From Oscillospiraceae bacterium (GTDB taxonomy: Bacteria; Bacillota; Clostridia; Oscillospirales; Ruminococcaceae): 64,000 bases of DNA. How positions within the stretch are numbered: position 1 is the stretch's first letter; each line of letters opens with the position of its first letter. The notes below the pieces were generated by a model. The model was not told the origin of the DNA. It did no database searches and worked only from the letters and a program-made list of their open reading frames with translations. Positions 6,671-47,358 of this stretch are shown in pieces. The stretch is from the NCBI GenBank assembly GCA_014799395.1, contig JAAVID010000003.1:63105-127104 (forward strand). Direction: 5' to 3'. Both the position numbers and the translations under genes were made by a program.

Positions 6671-8316
6671 GTTTCCTCCTGTTCAAATGCTACTTTTTTG
6701 CCATTTAGCGTTATCGAACTGTTTGACGTGCTGACCTCAAGTATTCCACCGCTTCCTCTATACCGAAGAACGGAGGGGTCAACAACAAATATCTCCACAC
6801 CGTTTTTATCACAAATGGTTAAATTCCCGTTGTCACGGAGCTTGATTTTCGCGCCTTTTCGGTTGATCTCAATATAATCATTCGCGAATGCCGCAGAATT
6901 TTCACCGCTTTTAAAATAAAACTGATCGCCGTAATCGATCTTCTGCACCGAGAACATTTCTTTCCCTTTGTCGTCCAGCGCCACGATTTTTGTCGGATCA
7001 TTCCATTTGAGCACATACGGAGCGCCGAAATTGCCGACAAGTTTTGTCGCGTCGGTTTTGCCTTGCAGTTCCTTTCTCGACTGATCTTTCGGCGGCAGAT
7101 AGTTCAGTTCGTCGGTCGAACGCGCGGAAAACACGCTCACCGCGCTTGCTAGGTTTTCGCCCTCCTGGTCCTCGCCGTCAAAAACTATAGGCACGGAACC
7201 CGCATTCGCTATGACCTGGTGTCCGTGATACACCCATGTGTTATGGGTAATAATTCCTATAAATTTGCCGATATTGGACGACCTTTTGATAGCGCCGCCC
7301 TCCATACAGACGGTGTCTCCGACATCAAGCGCGGGGTCTTGTGCGATCTCGGCACTGAACGGGTAAAAATACGCTCCCGACAGTTCTCTTAATATCGCCG
7401 AAAGAATATCCGCAAGCGGCGTTTCGCTGTCCATTATCAGAGGGTTTTGCTCAAGCTCAACGGTAACTTGCGTGTCCGAGCTTTTGTCAAAGTCGTACCG
7501 CTTTGTTACCAGTACTCCGTCCGCGCCGCGCATAGTAACGCCCGAAATATGTACGCGGTCGTCCGAAAACGTTATGCTGTATCTTTCCGAGCCGCCAATT
7601 GTCCGCGCGGTAAGATACCCAAGGTCGCCCTCCGTCGTTCCGTGCGTTTTTATCTGTACGAATTCCAAGGCTCCCCATCGGTTCACGCGCGCAAAACAGC
7701 CCATTATCTGAGCTATCCACATAATAGCGTCGCGGGCAATCTCTATCTGCTCCGAATCGAAGTTCAGCGGCAGGTCGGAATTTGGGAATTTCGCCAAATC
7801 CCCCGTATCTTGAGCAAATGAAAGTAAACCAACATTGCACAAGTACTGTGCAGCTTCCCAGGCGGTCTTGCCTTTAAGGTCTCGGCGCATTACCGCCGTG
7901 AGCTCATAGTGCAGCAATATCATTCCGTCGTATGCCTTGAAGCCGATATTATTTCCCTCGCGGCTTATCGACATACTGTCGATAAAGAATTTACCCATAG
8001 GTATATCTTCGTATTTATCGCTTGGCAGCTTTAACCCCGTGTACACCCACAGTCTCGCGCCCGAAAATATGTGTGTATCTATTGTCGGACTTTTTACGGT
8101 CATTGTGAGCATTTTTGAAGTCGCGGCGCCAATATCAATAGTGTTGCTTGACGCACTGCCCGACATTGCCTGACTCGTTATAGTAACATCACCGATAATG
8201 TGACTGTCGGTCAGCCTTAAAATCGTGTCATCGCGCAGGTAAATGTTTGCCTGCATTCTGAATTTTCGCGATCTTTCGGCTATCGCGGTTTTATATTCCG
8301 CGCTTACCTTATACAA
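6667..8316 (-). CDS. Tail protein (baseplate hub/Tal-like)
   Basis: IDIGAATSK.L, IPMGKFFI, AYDGM, EIAQDPALDVGD motifs typical of Firmicutes phage tail proteins. Confidence 0.75.
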   Translation of the reverse strand: MYKVSAEYKTAIAERSRKFRMQANIYLRDDTILRLTDSHIIGDVTITSQAMSGSASSNTIDIGAATSKMLTMTVKSPTIDTHIFSGARLWVYTGLKLPSDKYEDIPMGKFFIDSMSISREGNNIGFKAYDGMILLHYELTAVMRRDLKGKTAWEAAQYLCNVGLLSFAQDTGDLAKFPNSDLPLNFDSEQIEIARDAIMWIAQIMGCFARVNRWGALEFVQIKTHGTTEGDLGYLTARTIGGSERYSITFSDDRVHISGVTMRGADGVLVTKRYDFDKSSDTQVTVELEQNPLIMDSETPLADILSAILRELSGAYFYPFSAEIAQDPALDVGDTVCMEGGAIKRSSNIGKFIGIITHNTWVYHGHQVIANAGSVPIVFDGEDQEGENLASAVSVFSARSTDELNYLPPKDQSRKELQGKTDATKLVGNFGAPYVLKWNDPTKIVALDDKGKEMFSVQKIDYGDQFYFKSGENSAAFANDYIEINRKGAKIKLRDNGNLTICDKNGVEIFVVDPSVLRYRGSGGILEVSTSNSSITLNGKKVAFEQEET

Positions 8317-18122: not shown

Positions 18123-19715
18123 TCAAAACGTAATAAGCCCGCGCTCATCATAAACGCTATTCTCGGCGACTCCTCCGCATTTCAGCGCCCTGTCAAGCGC
18201 CATTACCGTCGCGACAGCTCCGTCGATCTTCTCGGTGGATTTCTCCTTATCGGGCTTGATATTGCCCGCGGGGTCCTTACGGATACAAATATTATCCATA
18301 TTCCAGCGGAGAATAGGGTGTCCGCCGTGCGCGAGCCGTTGGCTCAACGCAAGATTCATAAGTTCCTTTGTCGGCGGCGACATATCCTTGAAGCCCTGAC
18401 CGAAACGAATAACGGTAAAACCGAGTTTTTCAAGATTCTGAACAACGTGCTCTGCGCCCCAGCGGTCAAACGCTATCTCGCGGATATTGTACTTTTGCCC
18501 GAGTTCTTCAATGAATTTCTCTATGTACTCATAGTGAATTACATTGCCCTCCGTCACCTGCAAAAAGCCCTGTCGCGCCCATAGGTCATAAGGAACATGA
18601 TCGCGCCGCACTCTAAGGTCAAGCGTTTCCTCGGGAACCCAGAAAAACGGCAGTATCTGATACTTGTCGTCCTCGTCCTCGGGAGAAAACACCAGCACAA
18701 AAGACGTAAGGTCGGTCGTCGTCGAGAGATCAAGCCCGCCGTAGCACGCCCGACCCTCAAGATTTTTGCAATCGATTGCAAAAGCACATTTATCCCAGAT
18801 CTCCATCGGCATCCAGCGAACCGCTTGCTTGACCCACTGATTAAGTCGGAGCTGACGGAATGCGTTTTCTTCACTCGGCTGTTGCCGCGCCGATTCATAA
18901 GCCGCTCGGACCTTATCGATATTGATTGTCTTTCCGAGCGAGGGATTAGCCTTTTTCCAGACTTTCGGGTCGGACCAGTCGTCGTTTTCGTCCGCGCCGT
19001 AAATTACGGGATAAAACGTCGGGTCGATTTTCCGACCCGCGATTATATCCTTAGCCTTTTGATGAACCTCGTAGCAAATGCTGTTGGTATTGTCGCCGGC
19101 GGTGGTTATCAAAAAGAAAAGCGGCTGCATACGCGCGTCGCCCGAGCCCTTTGTCATTACGTCGTACAGCTTGCGGTTCGGTTGAGCGTGAAGCTCGTCG
19201 AATACTACGCCGTGAACGTTGTAGCCGTGCTTACTCGCGACCTCCGATGAAACGACCTGATAGAAGCTGTTTGTCGGCTTATATGTGATCCTCTTTTTGC
19301 TGTCCGAGATAATACAGCGCTTTTTCAGCGCGGGGCAAAGATTTACCATTTCTTTCGCGACGTCAAAGACTATCGCGGCCTGCGCTCTGTCTGCGGCGCA
19401 GCCGTAGATCTCCGCGCCCTGTTCGCCGTCGCCGCAAAGCAGCAGCAAAGCAATGGCCGCCGCGATCTCGGATTTACCGTTCTTTTTCGGTATCTCGACA
19501 TAAGCGAAATTGAACTGCCTGTATCCGTCCTTTTTTACAACGCCGAAAATATCGCGGATTATCTGTTCCTGCCAATCGAGGAGCTTAAAATGCTTTCCGT
19601 ACCATATACCCTTGGTATGGCAGAGATTTTCAATGAATTCAACGGCAAAATCGGCTTTTTCCTTGTCGTACACCGATGATTTGAGTTTGAATTTAGTCGG
19701 CTTATACTTTGCCAT
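18123..19715 (-). CDS. terL: Terminase large subunit
   Basis: Walker A IPKKNGKS, Walker B VVFDELH, GGLDLS, IAFDRWG, KIDGAVA. Confidence 0.97.
   Translation of the reverse strand: MAKYKPTKFKLKSSVYDKEKADFAVEFIENLCHTKGIWYGKHFKLLDWQEQIIRDIFGVVKKDGYRQFNFAYVEIPKKNGKSEIAAAIALLLLCGDGEQGAEIYGCAADRAQAAIVFDVAKEMVNLCPALKKRCIISDSKKRITYKPTNSFYQVVSSEVASKHGYNVHGVVFDELHAQPNRKLYDVMTKGSGDARMQPLFFLITTAGDNTNSICYEVHQKAKDIIAGRKIDPTFYPVIYGADENDDWSDPKVWKKANPSLGKTINIDKVRAAYESARQQPSEENAFRQLRLNQWVKQAVRWMPMEIWDKCAFAIDCKNLEGRACYGGLDLSTTTDLTSFVLVFSPEDEDDKYQILPFFWVPEETLDLRVRRDHVPYDLWARQGFLQVTEGNVIHYEYIEKFIEELGQKYNIREIAFDRWGAEHVVQNLEKLGFTVIRFGQGFKDMSPPTKELMNLALSQRLAHGGHPILRWNMDNICIRKDPAGNIKPDKEKSTEKIDGAVATVMALDRALKCGGVAENSVYDERGLITF
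18766..18781. promoter_or_regulatory. Palindrome TTGCAATCGATTGCAA copy 1 (inside terL)
   Basis: Perfect palindrome, 20 bp with flanks. Confidence 0.7.
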
Positions 19716-19918: not shown

Positions 19919-19934
19919 TTGCAATTGATTGCAA
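19919..19934. promoter_or_regulatory. Palindrome copy 2 (TTGCAATTGATTGCAA), intergenic upstream of terL
   Basis: Direct sequence match. Confidence 0.7.
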
Positions 19935-31104: not shown

Positions 31105-31415
31105 GACAACGCCTCCTTCATTTTTCCGACCATAGCCGTTATTGCCGCAACGGGCTTTTCGCGCTCCTCCTCGGGCAGCGCGTTCAATGCTTCCAATGCT
31201 GCGTTAAAATTGCGCAGACATTCCTCAACATGGAATTTCACACGCTCCTTTTGCGTGCTGGGAGGCGTCTTTTTTGCAAGCGATTGCAAAGCGGCGTTTT
31301 CGGTTTCCAGCCGCTCGAGTTTCTCCGCGTTCGCGTTGATCCGGCTGTCAAGAAATGCCGCGAGGTTTTCACGCAAGTCTGTGTCCTGCGCCTTTGTCAT
31401 CTTGTTGTTGTCCAT
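31101..31415 (-). pseudogene. Probable internally deleted DUF3102-type protein
   Basis: LDSRINANA (domain start) joins directly to the C-terminal coiled coil. Confidence 0.45.
31274..31289. promoter_or_regulatory. Palindrome copy 3 (TTGCAAGCGATTGCAA), intragenic
   Basis: Direct sequence match. Confidence 0.65.
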
Positions 31416-32648: not shown

Positions 32649-32765
32649 TTGACTTTTGAGCGGGAAAGTGATATAATATTTATAGGGTGATTTTGCAATC
32701 GATTGCAAAATGAATTTTTTCACTTTCCTGCTTTGTTCCCGCCGGCTTTGGCGGGGATTTTTTTA
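32649..32765 (+). promoter_or_regulatory. Antisense sigmaA promoter + terminator unit B
   Basis: TTGACT-17-TGaTATAAT (32649-32677); hairpin 32737-32757 plus T run. Confidence 0.7.
32693..32708. promoter_or_regulatory. Palindrome copy 4, just downstream of the unit B -10 box
   Basis: Perfect 20-bp palindrome 32691-32710. Confidence 0.7.
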
Positions 32766-38811: not shown

Positions 38812-39052
38812 CTTCGTCCACCTCGCTTTCGTCCTCGAATTCCAGATTTCGCCCCATAATCGTTCCGATCAGCATTAGGATAATACCTACAACGCCCTTT
38901 CCCAGCGCGAACCACAGTTCCTCGATTCCGTATGTAATACGCTGCTCGTTCAGATAGTCAAGGCGACCCATAGAGCATAATAACACTAAAATGCCAAACC
39001 AGAACAGAACGTTCGTGATGATAAGCCGACGCTTGGTTTGTTTTTCCGTCAT
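38798..39052 (-). CDS. Two-TM membrane protein
   Basis: Two hydrophobic segments. Confidence 0.7.
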   Translation of the reverse strand: MTEKQTKRRLIITNVLFWFGILVLLCSMGRLDYLNEQRITYGIEELWFALGKGVVGIILMLIGTIMGRNLEFEDESEVDEDVNE

Positions 39053-39720
39053 GGCTTTTCCTCCGCGCAATAATAGGATTTAAGCATTTTTATAATCTCT
39101 CCGCCGAATGCGTTCTCGGTCAATTTGATGAATTCCTCGACCGTCATACCGGAATCAAGATCAACGTCGTGTTCCTTTGCAAACTGGCTTCGACCCATTT
39201 CACATGAACCCGTGAGTTTGTTGTGCCAATCATAAAACAGCCTATTGGAATAGACCGTATTGGGCTTGAATTCCTCACAAAACACTTTGATACGCTCCTC
39301 AACGGGCATATCTGCGAAAAGCTTGTCGTTAAGCGCTGCCATGGCCTCGCGAAGCGTTTCGCCATGTGCAAAAGTATTACCGCGCTTGACTACATAACAT
39401 GGTGTGAGTGTCAAATCATCGTTTACGATCGCGCCTTTGGCACAATCCTTATGAACGCTATATATAATGGTTGCGACTCCATCTATATTATGTATCTTAT
39501 GTGAATTTAAAACAGCGCCGAATAAGGAGCCGGAGCCGTAGCCGTAGCCGTAGCCGTCGCCGGAGCCGTAGCCGTAGCCGGAGCCGTAGCCGTCGCCGGA
39601 GCCGTCGCCGGAGCCGGAGCCGTAGCCGGAGCCGGAGCCGGAGCCGTCGCCGGAGCCGGAGCCGTAGCCGTAGCCGGAGCCGGAGCAAACCTCGACAAAC
39701 TTTCGAATCATCTCTTCCAT
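39049..39720 (-). CDS. G-[S/Y/D] dipeptide-repeat protein with globular C-domain
   Basis: 26 G-x pairs then IDG..CYVVK..FAHGET..HNKLTGSCEMGR. Confidence 0.85.
   Translation of the reverse strand: MEEMIRKFVEVCSGSGYGYGSGSGDGSGSGSGYGSGSGDGSGDGYGSGYGYGSGDGYGYGYGSGSLFGAVLNSHKIHNIDGVATIIYSVHKDCAKGAIVNDDLTLTPCYVVKRGNTFAHGETLREAMAALNDKLFADMPVEERIKVFCEEFKPNTVYSNRLFYDWHNKLTGSCEMGRSQFAKEHDVDLDSGMTVEEFIKLTENAFGGEIIKMLKSYYCAEEKP
39527..39686. repeat. 6-nt tandem repeat array (GCCGTA/GCCGGA/GCCGTC)
   Basis: Directly visible. Confidence 0.95.
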
Positions 39721-41816: not shown

Positions 41817-42060
41817 TCTAACACTTCCTTTCTTAAATTGTGTCCGCATTTGCGGACTTTGTACATTCATTATATCCCATTTTGCGTACATTGTCAAGTG
41901 GTTTTGTACAAATTTGCGTACTTTCTCCATTTTGTACATAAATGCGTTGATTTTTTGTACATTTGTACAGTTTTGCGTACATTTCTTATATAACGCGCGG
42001 AAATGTATTGACATTCGGATTTTTATATGGTATAATCATAAATAGTAAGGGGGTATTTAA
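41817..42060. promoter_or_regulatory. Lysis/lysogeny switch with divergent promoters and operators
   Basis: Repeated TGTAC..TGCGTAC half-palindromes; TTGACA..TATAAT toward cI at ~42008-42036. Confidence 0.8.
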
Positions 42061-42429
42061 TTGGGCTTTGGAAAGAAACTAGAGGAAAAAATGTCCGCAA
42101 AAGGCTTGAAACAAGCCGATATAGTCAGAGCGACGGGCATTTCAAAAACAACGTTAAGCAGCATGATCAGCCGAGATAATACAAAGGTTGATGTAGAAAT
42201 GTTTATCCGTATCTGCGATTTGCTTGAATGCGATCCTATGGATTTTGCAAGTGAAGTCCGACAAACGGCTAAAGAACCGGCTATGTATACCGCCGACCAA
42301 GAATATGTGATAGAAACTATGAATGAACTGAATGAGGACGGTATGAAAGAGCTGGTCAACTACTGCGAATTTCTGCGAATGAAAGGGTGCTTTAAAAAAG
42401 TGCCCGATAAGAATGCTTCCGAGGCGTAA
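42061..42429 (+). CDS. CI-like XRE repressor without peptidase domain
   Basis: LKQADIVRATGISKTTLSSMI HTH; divergent from cro; 122 aa. Confidence 0.88.
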   Translation: MGFGKKLEEKMSAKGLKQADIVRATGISKTTLSSMISRDNTKVDVEMFIRICDLLECDPMDFASEVRQTAKEPAMYTADQEYVIETMNELNEDGMKELVNYCEFLRMKGCFKKVPDKNASEA

Positions 42430-42481: not shown

Positions 42482-43396
42482 ATGAACAAATCGAAAAAAG
42501 CACTTTTGGCGGCGCTGTTTTGCGCTGCGGTTTTAAGCGGTTGTACGCCTGGGGAAACTTCGGGCTCAAATATAAGCACAAGCTCCGATAACTCAACATC
42601 TTCAAGTTCCGAGCAGTCATCAAGCACAAAATCCGAGGAAAGCTCAACGGACAGCGAACCAGCTCCCGAAAGCTCCGTCCCCGTTAAAGAGGCAAATATA
42701 AAAGTCGCGTCCTGGAAACTGTCAACGGATTACAGCGGCAAGGACGTGCTCGTTATTGAATACGAATGGACGAACACTAAGGACGATACCGCGAACTTTA
42801 TGACAACGTTCATTGATAAGGTCTACCAGAACGGTGTCGAGTGCGACAGTGGCGTTATAGGCTGTGATGATGTTGACTCCCAAAAGCAGATGAACGACAT
42901 CAAGCCCGGAGTTACTTACAATGTAGCGGTCGGTTATCTGCTCCAGGATAAAACCAATGTGAATGTTGTTGTAAATGAATTCCTCGGCGACGAGCTGTTG
43001 AACGAGACTATCGAGCTTGGCGGCGGCGAGGGTGCGGCTCCCGGCGGAGAGATCGCCGAGACTTCGATCAAGATCGCAAACCATTCGATTTCAAAGGATT
43101 TTGAGGGTGCCGACGTGCTTGTTGTAAATTACGAGTTCTACAACGGCGAGGACAGCGCAAAAGGGTTCAGCTTTATGTTTACCGATAAGGCGTTCCAGAA
43201 CGGCGTAGAATGCGACAGCACGGTCATAGGCTGTGATGAAGTCGACGTTCAGACGCAGCTCAACGAGATACAACCCGGGGTAACGTATACGGTGTCCGTC
43301 GGGTATCACATTGAGGATATGTCCGAGGTGGAGATCGAGGTAAAGGATTTGTTCGGTACTAAGGATTATCTGAACGAGAAGATTTCTCTTTCGTAA
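42482..43396 (+). CDS. Lipoprotein with two DUF5067-like domains
   Basis: Lipobox LSGC, Ser-rich linker, duplicated (Y/F)QNGVECD..IKPGVTY.V.VGY. Confidence 0.8.
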   Translation: MNKSKKALLAALFCAAVLSGCTPGETSGSNISTSSDNSTSSSSEQSSSTKSEESSTDSEPAPESSVPVKEANIKVASWKLSTDYSGKDVLVIEYEWTNTKDDTANFMTTFIDKVYQNGVECDSGVIGCDDVDSQKQMNDIKPGVTYNVAVGYLLQDKTNVNVVVNEFLGDELLNETIELGGGEGAAPGGEIAETSIKIANHSISKDFEGADVLVVNYEFYNGEDSAKGFSFMFTDKAFQNGVECDSTVIGCDEVDVQTQLNEIQPGVTYTVSVGYHIEDMSEVEIEVKDLFGTKDYLNEKISLS

Positions 43397-43401
43397 ACAA
43401 T

Positions 43402-43431
43402 AAGCGGCTGTTCGTTATCAAAACAGCCGCT
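43402..43431 (+). terminator. Hairpin terminator after lipoprotein gene
   Basis: agcggctgtt..aacagccgct. Confidence 0.6.
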
Positions 43432-43433
43432 CT

Positions 43434-43449
43434 TTGCAATTGATTGCAA
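43434..43449. promoter_or_regulatory. Palindrome copy 5, abutting ATG of TM2-HIRAN gene
   Basis: TTGCAATTGATTGCAA ends 2 nt before the 43451 start. Confidence 0.7.
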
Positions 43450-43450
43450 A

Positions 43451-44542
43451 ATGACTTTTGAGGAGATTTACAAAATGACCGATAAAAATAAAACGCTGAC
43501 ATTGATATTGTGTGTGCTTTTCGGCTATCTCGGTATGCACCGCTTTTATGTAGGAAAAAATAAATCGGGAATAGTATGGCTTTTGACAGGCGGGCTTTGC
43601 GGAATAGGCTGGATTATTGATATAATTTTAATATGCACGGATAAGTTTGACGGGGTTACGGGAACGCAAAACACATCTGTATCTCAACCTATCCAACAAC
43701 CTTTACAATCGAAGAGCGCGTCCATACCGCAACCTGTTCAACCGCCAACTGCTCCGATGCAGGAAACGGTTCAGGTGCAAACACCACAGCCGCAAGCCGC
43801 TCCGATACCGAAAGCTGTTCAAGTGCAAATACCACAGCCGCAAACTGCTCCAATACCTAAAGCCGTTCAAGCACAAGTACCACAGCAGCAAGCTGCTCCG
43901 ACTTTGGTTTCCACCTATGTGCCTATGCCCTGCTTTTTACCGATCACCGACGGCAAGGGGTTAAAATACGAGTATGAAAACGATTTGTGCATGATAAATA
44001 CTACAGCGGCGGAGCTTAACGCAGAATTGGGTGGAGAGGTCACGTTCAAGCAAGAACCCGAAAACGCCAATGACGCAAACGCGGTCGCAGTATGGCAGAA
44101 CGAACGCAAGCTCGGCTATATCTATCGCGGACAAAGTCAAGAAATGGCTAACCGTTGGTTGAAAAGCAACGATCCATTAATGGGATTTATAAGCCACGTG
44201 GATATTGTGCAGAATAAGGTCAAGTACAAAATCGGATTTTACAGACCGCTTGAGGAAATGGAAAAGGGTAAATTCAAGCTCGCGGGTATACGGCAAAAGG
44301 ATAATTTAGGCGATCTGCGGCAGGATAATTTAGAATGCTGCAAAGAGGGAGAGACGCTTTCAATTGAGTTCGACGACGAAACGGAAAAATATATCGTTTG
44401 GGGCGGTGGCGGCGAAATCGGCGTGCTGCCGAAAAAAGCAGAAGATTTTCTCGGTTCAAAAGACAGAGCCGTCGGCATTCTGACAAAAATGGAGTGTGAC
44501 GATGACGGCAAATATAACGCCGAGGTTGAAGTGTATATATAA
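43451..44542 (+). CDS. TM2 (NINE) membrane protein + P/Q repeat linker + tandem HIRAN-like domains
   Basis: FGYLGMHRFYVGK..GIVWLLTGGLCGIGWIID; EPENANDANAVAVW..KLGYI; second repeat GEIGVLPK. Confidence 0.8.
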   Translation: MTFEEIYKMTDKNKTLTLILCVLFGYLGMHRFYVGKNKSGIVWLLTGGLCGIGWIIDIILICTDKFDGVTGTQNTSVSQPIQQPLQSKSASIPQPVQPPTAPMQETVQVQTPQPQAAPIPKAVQVQIPQPQTAPIPKAVQAQVPQQQAAPTLVSTYVPMPCFLPITDGKGLKYEYENDLCMINTTAAELNAELGGEVTFKQEPENANDANAVAVWQNERKLGYIYRGQSQEMANRWLKSNDPLMGFISHVDIVQNKVKYKIGFYRPLEEMEKGKFKLAGIRQKDNLGDLRQDNLECCKEGETLSIEFDDETEKYIVWGGGGEIGVLPKKAEDFLGSKDRAVGILTKMECDDDGKYNAEVEVYI

Positions 44543-44551
44543 CACAATATC

Positions 44552-44567
44552 TTGCAATCGATTGCAA
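44552..44567. promoter_or_regulatory. Palindrome copy 6, 21 nt upstream of integrase ATG
   Basis: TTGCAATCGATTGCAA. Confidence 0.7.
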
Positions 44568-44588: not shown

Positions 44589-46172
44589 ATGGAACGCTAC
44601 GCAATGTACCTCCGCAAATCCCGAGCCGATCTGGACGCGGAGGCTCACGGCGAGGGCGAAACCCTCGCCCGGCACAAAGCCGCTTTGCTTGCATTAGCAA
44701 AGCGGCTGAATTTAACGGTCTCGGAAATATATCAGGAGATCGTATCAGGTGAAACAATAGCCGCTCGTCCGATGATGCAGCAGCTCCTCCAGGAGGTCAG
44801 TGAAGGAAAATGGACGGGAGTTATCGTAATGGAAGTTGAACGTCTCGCCCGCGGTGATACTATGGACCAGGGTTTTGTTTCGCAGACATTCAAATACAGT
44901 GGAACGAAAATCATCACACCGCTGAAAATATACGATCCGTCCAACGAATTCGACGAGGAATATTTTGAATTCGGTCTGTTTATGAGCCGCCGCGAATATG
45001 TCACTACAAACCGCCGCCTACAACGCGGACGCGCCGCCTCTGCCCGTGAGGGTAAATTTGTAGGAAGTATCGCTCCGTTTGGATATAAGCGCAAAAAAAT
45101 CGAAAACGACAAGGGATATACTCTTGAAATAGTTCCGGAGCAAGCGGAGATCATCAAAATGATTTTTGACTTCTACGTCAACGGTACAGATGTTAACGGC
45201 GAACACAAGCGACTTGGTTTTCAAGCAATCGCACGCAAGCTCAACGAGCTGAAAATTCCGCCAATACGTCACGACTATTGGCAAAAGGAATCCATCAAAG
45301 ATATCATAACAAATCCCACATATGCCGGAATGATACGCTGGGGATACCGCAAAGTAAAGAAAACGGTCACTCCGCAGGGAAAGAAAACGTCGCGCCCGAT
45401 AACATTGGACGATAATTGCATCATAGCCAAAGGGTTACATGAGGCTATAATTCCGAAAGATATATTCGACAGAGCTCAGGAATTTCTTGCAGAACAGCCG
45501 TCACCACCGGTCGGATATAAAAGCGAGATTAAAAATCCTCTGTGCAGTCTTGTCATTTGTGCGAAATGCGGTCGAAAAATGGTGCTAAGGCGCGGCACGG
45601 ACAAAAAGCCGGATTACATTGTATGTCACGCGCGCTCTTGTACGGTAGTATCAACTCCGCTTTATTTGGTTGAAGATCGTGTGCTTAATATTTTAAAACA
45701 ATGGGCGAATGACTATGAAGTAATCTCAAAGAATATGGATCTACAATTCGGAGCCAATATTGCCGATTATACGACGGTCAGCGAAAATCTTCAACAAGAG
45801 TTAAACGTTCTTGAACGCCAACAGCGCACGATATATGACCTTGTCGAACGCGGATTGTACACCGACGAGGAATTTAAAAAACGAATTACCGAAATCAAAC
45901 AGCGCATAGAAAATGCCAAAAACGGCTTAAAAAAGCTTGGTCTCGATAGAGAAATAGTGGAGAGAAGAAAAAAAGCAATTGAAGAATTCGCTCCAAAGGT
46001 CGAACATATCCTTGAGATATACTCCACTCGAACGTCTGCCGCCGCCAAAAACGAGATACTGAAAGAGGTACTTGAACGTGTTGTATATGATAAAGAAAAA
46101 AGCGGCGCGCTCAAGGGCTGTTCAGCAGATGATTTTACGCTGATTGCATATCCCAAATTGCCAAAACTATGA
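44589..46172 (+). CDS. Large serine recombinase (prophage integrase)
   Basis: YLRKS catalytic Ser, ERLARGD, recombinase domain, Zn ribbon CAKCG..C, coiled coil. Confidence 0.96.
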   Translation: MERYAMYLRKSRADLDAEAHGEGETLARHKAALLALAKRLNLTVSEIYQEIVSGETIAARPMMQQLLQEVSEGKWTGVIVMEVERLARGDTMDQGFVSQTFKYSGTKIITPLKIYDPSNEFDEEYFEFGLFMSRREYVTTNRRLQRGRAASAREGKFVGSIAPFGYKRKKIENDKGYTLEIVPEQAEIIKMIFDFYVNGTDVNGEHKRLGFQAIARKLNELKIPPIRHDYWQKESIKDIITNPTYAGMIRWGYRKVKKTVTPQGKKTSRPITLDDNCIIAKGLHEAIIPKDIFDRAQEFLAEQPSPPVGYKSEIKNPLCSLVICAKCGRKMVLRRGTDKKPDYIVCHARSCTVVSTPLYLVEDRVLNILKQWANDYEVISKNMDLQFGANIADYTTVSENLQQELNVLERQQRTIYDLVERGLYTDEEFKKRITEIKQRIENAKNGLKKLGLDREIVERRKKAIEEFAPKVEHILEIYSTRTSAAAKNEILKEVLERVVYDKEKSGALKGCSADDFTLIAYPKLPKL

Positions 46173-46199: not shown

Positions 46200-46250
46200 T
46201 CTATAGATGTTAACGTGTGTGTTCTGTTTCATCGGCGCACTCTCCGCTGA
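46200..46250. other. Hybrid att site (prophage right junction) inside asnB
   Basis: asnB homology ends after GAT GAA (46228-46233); next codons ETEHTR* are phage-derived. Confidence 0.8.
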
Positions 46251-47358
46251 GCGCCACGGGAAAGCCCGCGTTCTTGATCTCGCGGCAGAACAGCCACAGC
46301 GAGCTGTCAACGTCCGCCATTCCGGGGAGATCGCGCGCGTACGTCGAATCGTTCAGCGCCTCGGCGAGCGCGGGAGTATCCAGCACGACATTGGTGTGCT
46401 CCGAGCCGATAAACCTTGCCATTTCCTCTACATACGGCGCGTCCTCGTCGGGCTGAAACGCGCTTGCCTTGAAGTTCTCGCGGTTGTTCTTGTAATCTAT
46501 CGAAAACGTATGCAGGCGCTCGCCGCGCTTGGCGAATTCCGCCGCCGCTATCGCAGAGATGACCGAGCTGTCCAGCCCTCCCGACAGGAACGTACACAGC
46601 GGCACGTCGCTTACGAGCTGACGTTTCACAGCGTCGAAAATAAGCTCGCGGACGCGGCTCGCGGTCTCGGTGAAGCTCTCGTTGTGCGGGGAAGCCGTCA
46701 GTTTCCAGTAGCGCTTTACGGTCATTCCTTTGCGCGAGAACTCGGCGCAGTGCGCCGCGGGAATGTCGTGTATATCGCGGAACACGCCGCCGCCGACTAT
46801 CCGCGCGGGACCTATAAGCATTATCTCCGCCGCGCCCTCCTCGGTTATCACGGGCTTGACCCCGGGGTGCTTCAAAAGCGCCTTTATCTCGCTCGCGAAC
46901 ACCAGACCGTTCTCCGTTTCCGCGTAGAACAGCGGCTTTACGCCTATCCTGTCGCGGGCGAGGAACAGCGTCTGTTCGCTCCTGTTCCAGACCGCAAACG
47001 CGAAGATGCCGTTGAACATTTCAAGACACTTCTCGCCGTACTCGGCGTAGGCTTTCAGCACCACCTCGGTATCGGAATGTCCGAGGAAACGGTAACCGCG
47101 CTTTTCGAGCCCTCCGCGTATCTCCGTGGTGTTGTACAGCTCGCCGTTGTAGACGAGCGTGAGGTCTCCGAAGGTCATGGGCTGAGCGCCGTTTTCGGGG
47201 TCGATTACGATAAGCCGCCTGTGCGCGAGACAGACGTGCTCATGCTCGAAAAATCCGTCCGCGTCGGGTCCGCGCGGCGTAAGCGCACGGCTCATCTCGC
47301 GTATTATTTCGTTATTGATCTGCGTTCTGAAATTGATCTCTCCTGCAATTCCGCACAT
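46210..47358 (-). pseudogene. asnB: 5' part of glutamine-hydrolysing asparagine synthetase (AsnO-like), interrupted by prophage
   Basis: MCGIAG, RGPD, HRRL, LSGGLDSS, ARDLPGMADVDSSL, ends at SGECADE; full-length enzymes are ~600 aa. Confidence 0.92.

Follow-up and report, generated by a model that had tools for sequence, protein, structure and literature searches.

The 64,000-nucleotide stretch analysed here (the window), from contig JAAVID010000003.1 of an Oscillospiraceae bacterium (assembly GCA_014799395.1), contains a prophage with a lysogeny block on the + strand, its other genes running leftward. The block consists, in order, of a promoter at 42008, a cI-like helix-turn-helix (HTH) gene, a DUF5067 lipoprotein gene, a HIRAN gene and the gene of a large serine integrase. 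We focused on the HIRAN gene, whose product is predicted to combine a TM2-type membrane hairpin, a linker, a HIRAN domain (D1) and a second, degenerate HIRAN copy (D2). The longest open reading frame (ORF) at the locus spans 43451-44542 (+, 363 amino acids (aa)). Public gene calls start at its second ATG, at 43475, and give a protein of 355 aa (P0001, 100% identical); a Shine-Dalgarno sequence, GAGGAG, lies 9 nt upstream of this ATG. The coding sequence is most likely 43475-44542 (+), and residues are numbered below from 43475. A chance ORF was excluded because the 355-aa protein has 23 full-length homologues of the architecture TM2, linker, HIRAN and D2, and because a full HMMER search among 1.84 billion representatives, for which D1+D2 served as the only query, returned the two-domain module in 554 clusters at 50% identity, 291 of them below 1e-10.

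The layout of hairpin, linker and HIRAN part given in the first-pass annotation of this DNA was borne out by both Pfam and AlphaFold2. In the AlphaFold2 model of the whole protein, built on 21 homologues, a helical hairpin is followed by disordered residues 52-146 (predicted local distance difference test score, pLDDT, <50) and by two compact beta-rich domains at ~150-262 and 263-355 (pLDDT >90), which have an identical order of strands and helices; the C-terminal part contains six cysteines. The TM2 domain (PF05154; 69.4 bits against a cut-off of 27.9, E 2.9e-19) occupies residues 3-51 (43481..43627, +) and is modelled as two hydrophobic helices joined by a short loop, with helical segments at 3-25, 29-39 and 41-56. 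The P/Q/V/A-rich linker, at residues 56-147 (43640..43915, +), has 21 Gln and 17 Pro among its 92 residues. Its length is hypervariable in the homologue alignment (34-92 aa among the 21 homologues), that of the window protein being the longest in the clade. The three 48-bp (16-aa) P/Q repeats reported earlier from 43769 to ~43905 were recovered by Tandem Repeats Finder at 43742..43901 (+) as 3.3 copies (score 194, 81% matches) encoding units PQPQaAPIPKAVQvQi, and represent a recent expansion of a leash whose sequence matters little.

D1 (residues ~158-262; 43946..44260, +) is, on its predicted structure, a standard HIRAN domain. Pfam matched HIRAN (PF08797) at residues 192-240 of the 363-aa ORF with 34.1 bits (cut-off 24.7; E 2.4e-8), and likewise in 137 of the best 150 representatives of the family, the sample used for all family counts below. 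The six-stranded beta-barrel with flanking helices is supported by a pLDDT above 90 and by Foldseek searches of the PDB, in which D1 matched 3k2y, the stand-alone bacterial HIRAN protein lp_0118 (E 1.3e-5, target-normalised TM-score 0.69), and the HIRAN domain of HLTF with and without DNA (4xzg and 4s0n, E 3e-4, target-normalised TM-score 0.64-0.66; also 5bnh and 6kcs). When PDB sequences were searched with the family profile by hmmsearch, lp_0118 was the sole match and HLTF was not reached.

The HIRAN domain is established for HLTF as a module gripping free 3′-OH ends of single-stranded or frayed DNA; Y72 and Y93 border the cavity that receives the 3′ end of single-stranded DNA (ssDNA), and function is lost when N90 and N91 are both mutated (PMC4666394). 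The corresponding signature of D1 is E194-P-E-N197-A-N199-D200-A-N-A203-V, and that of the family E194-P-x-N197-x-[Y/H/F]199-D200-x-x-A203, together with Y165 and Y167 in strand 1. This pocket signature comprises the best-conserved columns of the whole protein: conservation reaches at least 90% at every one of Y165, Y167, E194, N197, D200, A203, G214 and Y215. N197 and position 199 share the spacing of N91 and Y93 in the HLTF pocket, a mapping by motif spacing rather than by structural superposition. As to the 3′-end pocket on which the first-pass annotation had built, D1 keeps N197, D200, Y165 and Y167, all at least 95% conserved in the family, but has Asn at the stacking position 199. Judged by these residues, the pocket is probably retained, though possibly weakened in this copy.

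That two HIRAN-like domains stand in tandem, as noted at first, was confirmed, except that the second copy (residues 263-355; 44261..44539, +) has lost the pocket loop. Their relationship is remote. BLASTP of the two C-terminal halves gave no alignment, and hhalign with 10-sequence profiles reached only E 0.032 (probability 1.6%); with deep profiles from ~150 family representatives, hhalign aligned D1 and D2 in register over 79 columns with a probability of 92.8% (E 4e-7). Modelled separately, D2 reached a pLDDT of 94. Pfam was empty for the D2 of ten homologues, and Foldseek of the D2 model against the PDB returned nothing significant and no HIRAN domain, the top matches being SmpB and the FIP200 claw; a resemblance between HIRAN and SmpB is remarked upon in the HLTF paper (PMC4666394). 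In the alignment of D1 with D2, the signature loop EPxNxYDxNA is deleted from D2. Eleven columns of D1 are at least 90% conserved against one of D2 (G316), and pairs of representatives are on average 36% identical in D1 and 30% in D2. Because the deep profiles align the two in register, D2 is best described, from its sequence relationships, as an old, degenerate HIRAN duplicate without the pocket motif.

The orientation of the module relative to the membrane was assessed by comparison with relatives, for which transmembrane (TM) segments were called by a simple hydropathy and lysine-plus-arginine (K+R) script rather than by a trained predictor. Two-helix hairpin anchors are found in 83 representatives, and 82 of these are predicted to be module-in, K+R being more numerous in the N-tail and the flank behind the hairpin than in the loop; one is tied and none is module-out. 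About a dozen others start with a hydrophobic helix followed by lysines (N-out/C-in type), nine have an amphipathic 'MGIFDFFKKKK' N-terminus, eight carry N-terminal zinc ribbons without a TM segment, two are tail-anchored and 14 show no anchor. Two relatives point the same way through their architecture, P0096 by the long KR-rich N-tail of a TM2-type protein and P0027 by a zinc ribbon, two TM segments and a KR-rich loop ahead of TM2. The HIRAN module is probably cytoplasmic, an orientation favoured because the anchors and fusion partners of the relatives point to both termini inside, and by the same comparison it is most likely membrane-proximal. The cytoplasmic HIRAN domains required in the first-pass annotation thus find indirect backing in 82 of 83 hairpin relatives, but not in the protein's own charges, which tie at 3 versus 3; the positive-inside rule applied to this protein alone was rejected as a basis for topology on account of that tie.

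Upstream in the block, a consensus promoter of the sigma-A type (TTGACA-17-TATAAT with TG; 42008..42036, +; 12/12 matches in the promoter scan) precedes the cI-like HTH repressor gene (42061..42429, +; Pfam HTH_26/HTH_3 and PHROG transcriptional repressor families) and is a candidate promoter of the whole + strand lysogeny block. The second cargo gene (42482..43396, +) encodes a lipoprotein with a lipobox-like LSGC and two DUF5067 domains (Pfam E 5e-46, two stretches). Downstream lies the large serine recombinase, the integrase (44589..46172, +; Pfam Resolvase, Recombinase and Zn_ribbon_recom; PHROG 95, E 5e-100). The co-orientation with cI remarked on at the outset holds, in that repressor, HIRAN gene and integrase are all on the + strand, an arrangement kept in the homologue contexts. 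The lysogen probably produces the HIRAN protein along with repressor and integrase.

The contexts of homologues were read at a handful of loci (L003, L004-L006, L007 and L008). In every one, the gene adjoins repressor or ImmA genes and an integrase gene and is co-oriented with the latter. At L003, the gene is preceded by HTH and ImmA genes and followed by that of a serine integrase; at L004-L006 the integrase is of the tyrosine type; at L007 an ion-channel gene separates the HIRAN gene from a serine integrase; and L008 is a further case of the same lysogeny-module placement. Since the position is kept across integrase types, the HIRAN gene is a lysogeny-module cargo gene. L007 is the closest relative prophage, from a rabbit-gut Clostridia metagenome-assembled genome (MAG), and its channel gene (7054-7878) encodes a 274-aa Ion_trans protein, another membrane cargo in the slot.

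D1 and D2 nearly always occur together, behind very different, non-homologous N-terminal localisers. A locus search with a 6-sequence alignment returned eight loci, all in Clostridia MAGs, and all named genome matches are likewise Clostridia MAGs from gut or rumen (Oscillospiraceae, Acutalibacteraceae and Lachnospiraceae); the few named members are entries such as 'HIRAN domain [Caudoviricetes sp.]', from viromes. Among ~400 sampled genomes of the phylum, a hidden Markov model search found the full module in the window's own genome only, the other matches being bare HIRAN cores, six of them within larger ORFs of ~1200 aa. The module is thus sparse per genome and very diverse overall. The PADLOC candidate system PDC-M03B, to which the HIRAN core of the window protein matched weakly (E 4e-6), was not assigned, the HipA partner of that system being absent here.

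The HIRAN gene is flanked by two 16-bp palindromes, TTGCAATTGATTGCAA just upstream (43434..43449) and TTGCAATCGATTGCAA between it and the integrase gene (44552..44567). The right half of TTGCAATCGATTGCAA forms the -35 element of a TTGCAA-17-TATAAT match before the integrase gene. Six copies of the palindrome TTGCAATNGATTGCAA are present in the prophage (18766-18781, 19919-19934, 31274-31289, 32693-32708, 43434-43449 and 44552-44567) against 0.38 chance matches expected, and all six share an asymmetric extension in + orientation, TTT before and AAnnnAnTTT after. The same palindrome lies upstream of the integrase gene at L007. TTGCAATNGATTGCAA is probably the operator of some phage regulator. 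Its copies were rejected as boundaries of a HIRAN-gene cassette in view of the four further copies elsewhere in the prophage, and also of L007, where the copy precedes the integrase gene rather than the HIRAN gene.

Other proteins encoded in the slot between repressor and integrase connect the HIRAN gene to nucleases. In P0118, one of the 150 representatives, D2 gives way to a DEDDh RNase_T-type 3′-5′ exonuclease; this protein is 42% identical to the window protein over the query portion that includes D1. The HIRAN-exonuclease fusions found from P0118 carry the same types of localiser as the HIRAN-D2 family, namely TM2 in P0238, zinc ribbons in P0239, an amphipathic N-terminus in P0234, a hydrophobic helix in P0235 and a TM segment in P0118. 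The gene of P0235 begins 25 nt after a repressor gene of the cI type (HTH and S24) and lies upstream of a tyrosine integrase gene, and that of P0262, a TM2-exonuclease protein (L045, 2759-3958), is located between ImmA and integrase genes. P0262 and its relatives P0260-P0267 are TM2-anchored DEDDh exonucleases without detectable HIRAN and bear a Cys/His-rich C-terminal extension with a weak Phage_min_cap2 match; in other relatives the same exonuclease is joined to an FtsK-gamma DNA-binding domain.

The first homologue search also retrieved, on account of its anchor, P0024, a strong homologue of PD-Lambda-1/SNIPE (PADLOC E 1e-82) with GIY-YIG (T5orf172) and DUF4041 domains. Its TM2 anchor is 79% identical to that of the window protein over 61 residues (E 6e-33), and its gene (L047, 1897-3339; L048, 558-2000) follows a cI-like gene by 3 nt in a related gut phage. 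As read from the domain matches, one slot in related prophages holds a SNIPE-type nuclease, a HIRAN-guided 3′-5′ exonuclease or a HIRAN-HIRAN′ protein, and the same few types of anchor recur among this cargo, once as an anchor 79% identical to that of the window protein. The survey of SNIPE homologues in section 9 of PMC13190303 gives other anchor types, with no mention of TM2.

The kind of gene described here has already been named. A pneumococcal prophage gene for a transmembrane HIRAN protein, located in the lysogeny module next to a C1-type repressor gene, was designated thaL in 2025 by Kwun et al. (PMC12637031), which takes away the first-pass annotation's suggestion of a possibly new kind of mechanism. 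The window protein shares with ThaL the TM anchor, the HIRAN domain and the location in a prophage lysogeny module, a likeness by description rather than by comparison with the phiRMV8 protein sequence, and differs from it in the TM2-type hairpin, the repeat-expanded P/Q linker, the degenerate second HIRAN and the gut Oscillospiraceae host. The first three of these features, along with Asn at stacking position 199, are what is particular to this case.

SNIPE, formerly PD-Lambda-1 (Saxton et al., Nature 2026, PMC13190303), is constitutively membrane-anchored with its nuclease in the cytoplasm, where phage DNA is cut while it is being injected; thanks to the anchor the nuclease stays away from the chromosome, and SNIPE homologues have highly variable N-terminal anchors with one TM segment, two or none (PMC13190303). 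The window protein resembles it in having a membrane anchor and a putative DNA-binding part that is presumably cytoplasmic, and in the proposed logic of telling self apart from non-self by position, at the site of entry. It gave no Pfam match to GIY-YIG (T5orf172) or DUF4041 and no PADLOC match to PD-Lambda-1. Lacking both nuclease and DUF4041, it would have to act non-catalytically, and nothing points to its binding a tape-measure protein; it is not a member of the SNIPE family, though it may follow the same spatial principle. HLTF/Rad5 HIRAN (4s0n, 4xzg, 5bnh) and lp_0118 (3k2y) share with D1 the fold, the signature loop and the invariant Asn and Asp; the window protein, compared with HLTF/Rad5, has no SNF2 motor or RING, is tethered to the membrane by its predicted anchor, is duplicated and has Asn at the Y93 equivalent. 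The HIRAN-DEDDh fusions (P0118, P0235, P0238 and P0239) have the same HIRAN D1, anchor repertoire and repressor-integrase slot and differ in carrying a DnaQ/RNase T-type 3′-5′ exonuclease where the window protein has the degenerate HIRAN. Sie2009 of lactococcal phages and Ltp of the Streptococcus thermophilus phage TP-J34 are small membrane proteins or lipoproteins that are encoded in the gap between repressor and integrase genes, are expressed in the lysogen and block DNA injection. They are likened to the window protein by location and protein type, not by sequence comparison, and differ in that they work from the outer side, or on the tape-measure protein, instead of through a DNA-end-binding domain.

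A role against incoming DNA is plausible because the slot-mates of the gene include HIRAN-DEDDh fusions and a TM2-anchored SNIPE homologue. The reading that we prefer, and regard as about evenly poised between right and wrong, is that the lysogen expresses the protein as a trap which holds the ends of incoming DNA without catalysis. In this model, the TM2 hairpin would hold a ThaL-type cargo protein in the cytoplasmic membrane, and the floppy ~92-residue linker would let the HIRAN domain and its degenerate copy sweep the space just below it. D1 would bind free 3′ ends of DNA, so that foreign ends, above all those of a superinfecting phage genome, would be captured at their point of entry, and capture would block circularisation, replication or complete entry. 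The tether would let self and non-self be told apart by place, as has been shown for SNIPE, and the faster-evolving D2 may add affinity for DNA or may link the protein to an entry protein of phage or host, the adaptor part that DUF4041 plays in SNIPE. Since this variant has no nuclease, the end is proposed to be capped or sequestered. Of the membrane-tethered catcher of phage DNA suggested in the first-pass annotation, the catcher is made plausible by the slot-mates, although this copy has Asn199; nothing points specifically to 3′ cos overhangs as its target.

Several observations weigh against this trap model. In 142 of 150 relatives an aromatic residue (Y111, H24, F7) fills position 199, which in the window protein is Asn; close relatives have N, S, Y or H. 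Since this is the stacking position, the window copy may bind ends weakly. The protein itself has two K+R residues in its N-tail, three in the HRFYVGKNKSG loop and one behind helix 2, and eukaryotic TM2D proteins are described with the loop inside and both termini outside (PMC8714088). The promoter scan found no promoter directly upstream of the HIRAN gene, so that read-through from the cI promoter is the simplest assumption, and a GC-rich hairpin (43402..43432; terminator scan, RNA fold z = -3.4) parts the gene from the lipoprotein gene; this element is bidirectional and terminator-like, and at best a weak terminator on the + strand. Searching 50,697 deposited phage genomes by tblastn with two family members gave no match, and therefore no cultured model is at hand. 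The thaL precedent is a name only, with no functional assay in PMC12637031. Finally, a blocking step carried out without a nuclease domain is speculative.

A more specific version of the trap is offered as a tentative and rather doubtful proposal. It holds that the leashed HIRAN pair caps or holds the first 3′ end of any DNA crossing the membrane, that of a superinfecting phage or possibly transforming ssDNA, leaving the invader unable to circularise, replicate or recombine, with the degenerate copy serving as specificity adaptor for a phage or host entry protein. Such a nuclease-free defence could be a non-catalytic sister of SNIPE-type spatial immunity and possibly also a tool of the prophage against being cured from the chromosome.

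A related but distinct possibility, which we consider unlikely, is that the protein is an anti-curing or anti-uptake factor directed at transforming ssDNA and not at phage DNA, a trapped 3′ end lowering recombination and so shielding the prophage from deletion. Transforming ssDNA enters Gram-positive cells 3′ end first via ComEC, which the host encodes, and the DnaQ-like 3′-5′ exonuclease of the sister proteins would suit such a substrate. The preference of HIRAN for single-stranded 3′ ends (PMC4666394) fits as well, as does the arms race between prophages and transformation, with thaL in a pneumococcal lysogeny module (PMC12637031). However, a published abstract describes the thaL-carrying phiRMV8 lysogen as still transformable, with deletion of phiRMV8 by recombination about as efficient as the transfer of point mutations. 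Moreover, a SNIPE homologue occupies the same slot, and plasmid transformation is not blocked by SNIPE (PMC13190303).

Equally improbable in our estimate is a role in the phage's own DNA transactions, in which the protein would tether or protect genome ends at the membrane during the establishment of lysogeny or after induction, or would sense 3′ ends or gaps in damaged host DNA as an input for induction. Parallels exist in the membrane DNA-binding protein p16.7 of phi29, in end-protecting proteins such as Gam and in other membrane proteins 'associated with lysogeny' (SzaL) that modulate prophage activation. The gene forms one block with cI and integrase, and the phage-wide palindrome flanking it also precedes the integrase gene, suggesting co-regulation with phage functions. 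Yet the slot is freely swapped among the SNIPE homologue, exonucleases, ion channel and lipoprotein, as accessory genes typically are and genes for core life-cycle functions are not; just one of the ~400 sampled genomes contained the full module; and the exonuclease that replaces D2 in the fusions would destroy ends rather than protect them.

We give little credence to abortive infection in the manner of lambda RexA/RexB, by which binding of ends by HIRAN would cluster the TM2 hairpins and an ion leak would stop the infected cell. The rexAB genes share the location in the immunity region, many defence effectors are small TM modules, and 15 invariant anchor columns show how strongly the TM2 hairpin is conserved within the close clade. 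The anchor is nonetheless replaced in relatives by single TM segments, amphipathic helices, tail anchors or TM-less zinc ribbons, and anchors so interchangeable argue for localisation and not for pore formation; the same TM2 anchor also serves a nuclease of the direct-defence type. An inverted arrangement, with the TM2 loop inside, the C-terminal domains outside to bind extracellular DNA or a phage tail component and the P/Q linker spanning the wall, would accord with the loop having the most positive charges, with the TM2D orientation, with the Pro-rich linkers common in wall-spanning Gram-positive proteins and with a surface lipoprotein as neighbouring cargo, but is highly improbable given the 82 of 83 module-in hairpin relatives, the zinc-ribbon-only, amphipathic and tail-anchored relatives without an export signal, the KR-rich cytoplasmic segments before TM2 in P0027 and P0096, the GIY-YIG and DEDDh nucleases on the same anchor and the six cysteines of the C-terminal part.

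It is the genes between repressor and integrase that determine what further phages and DNAs a lysogen lets in. The module swaps in this slot turn a bare HIRAN annotation into a testable model of devices under the membrane that recognise invading DNA by its location and its free end. If the non-catalytic trap does protect, immunity by location would extend beyond nucleases, and the phage ecology of the gut microbiome would gain a widespread new exclusion determinant, given the 554 clusters of the family.

Some further features of the window were recorded. Each DUF5067 domain of the lipoprotein contains a conserved Cys pair, and the protein has PHROG matches of unknown function only; its gene occupies the position where Gram-positive phages keep surface exclusion proteins. 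Beyond the integrase gene, a fragment of an asparagine-synthetase-like amidotransferase gene (46210-47358, -) comprises the N-terminal 382 codons and ends at the integrase side, which is consistent with the prophage interrupting that gene. An early-region protein (39049-39720, -) starts with ~53 low-complexity Gly/Ser/Tyr/Asp residues of a GSGYGD-like pattern, encoded by an array at 39526-39686 (a hexanucleotide in 26.8 copies, with an 18-bp superunit in 8.9) whose opposite strand yields a spurious Arg/Ser ORF. At another place in this genome, a second TM2-domain ORF (contig C101, 8796-8954; 180 aa; L002) is 55% identical to the window protein over the anchor.

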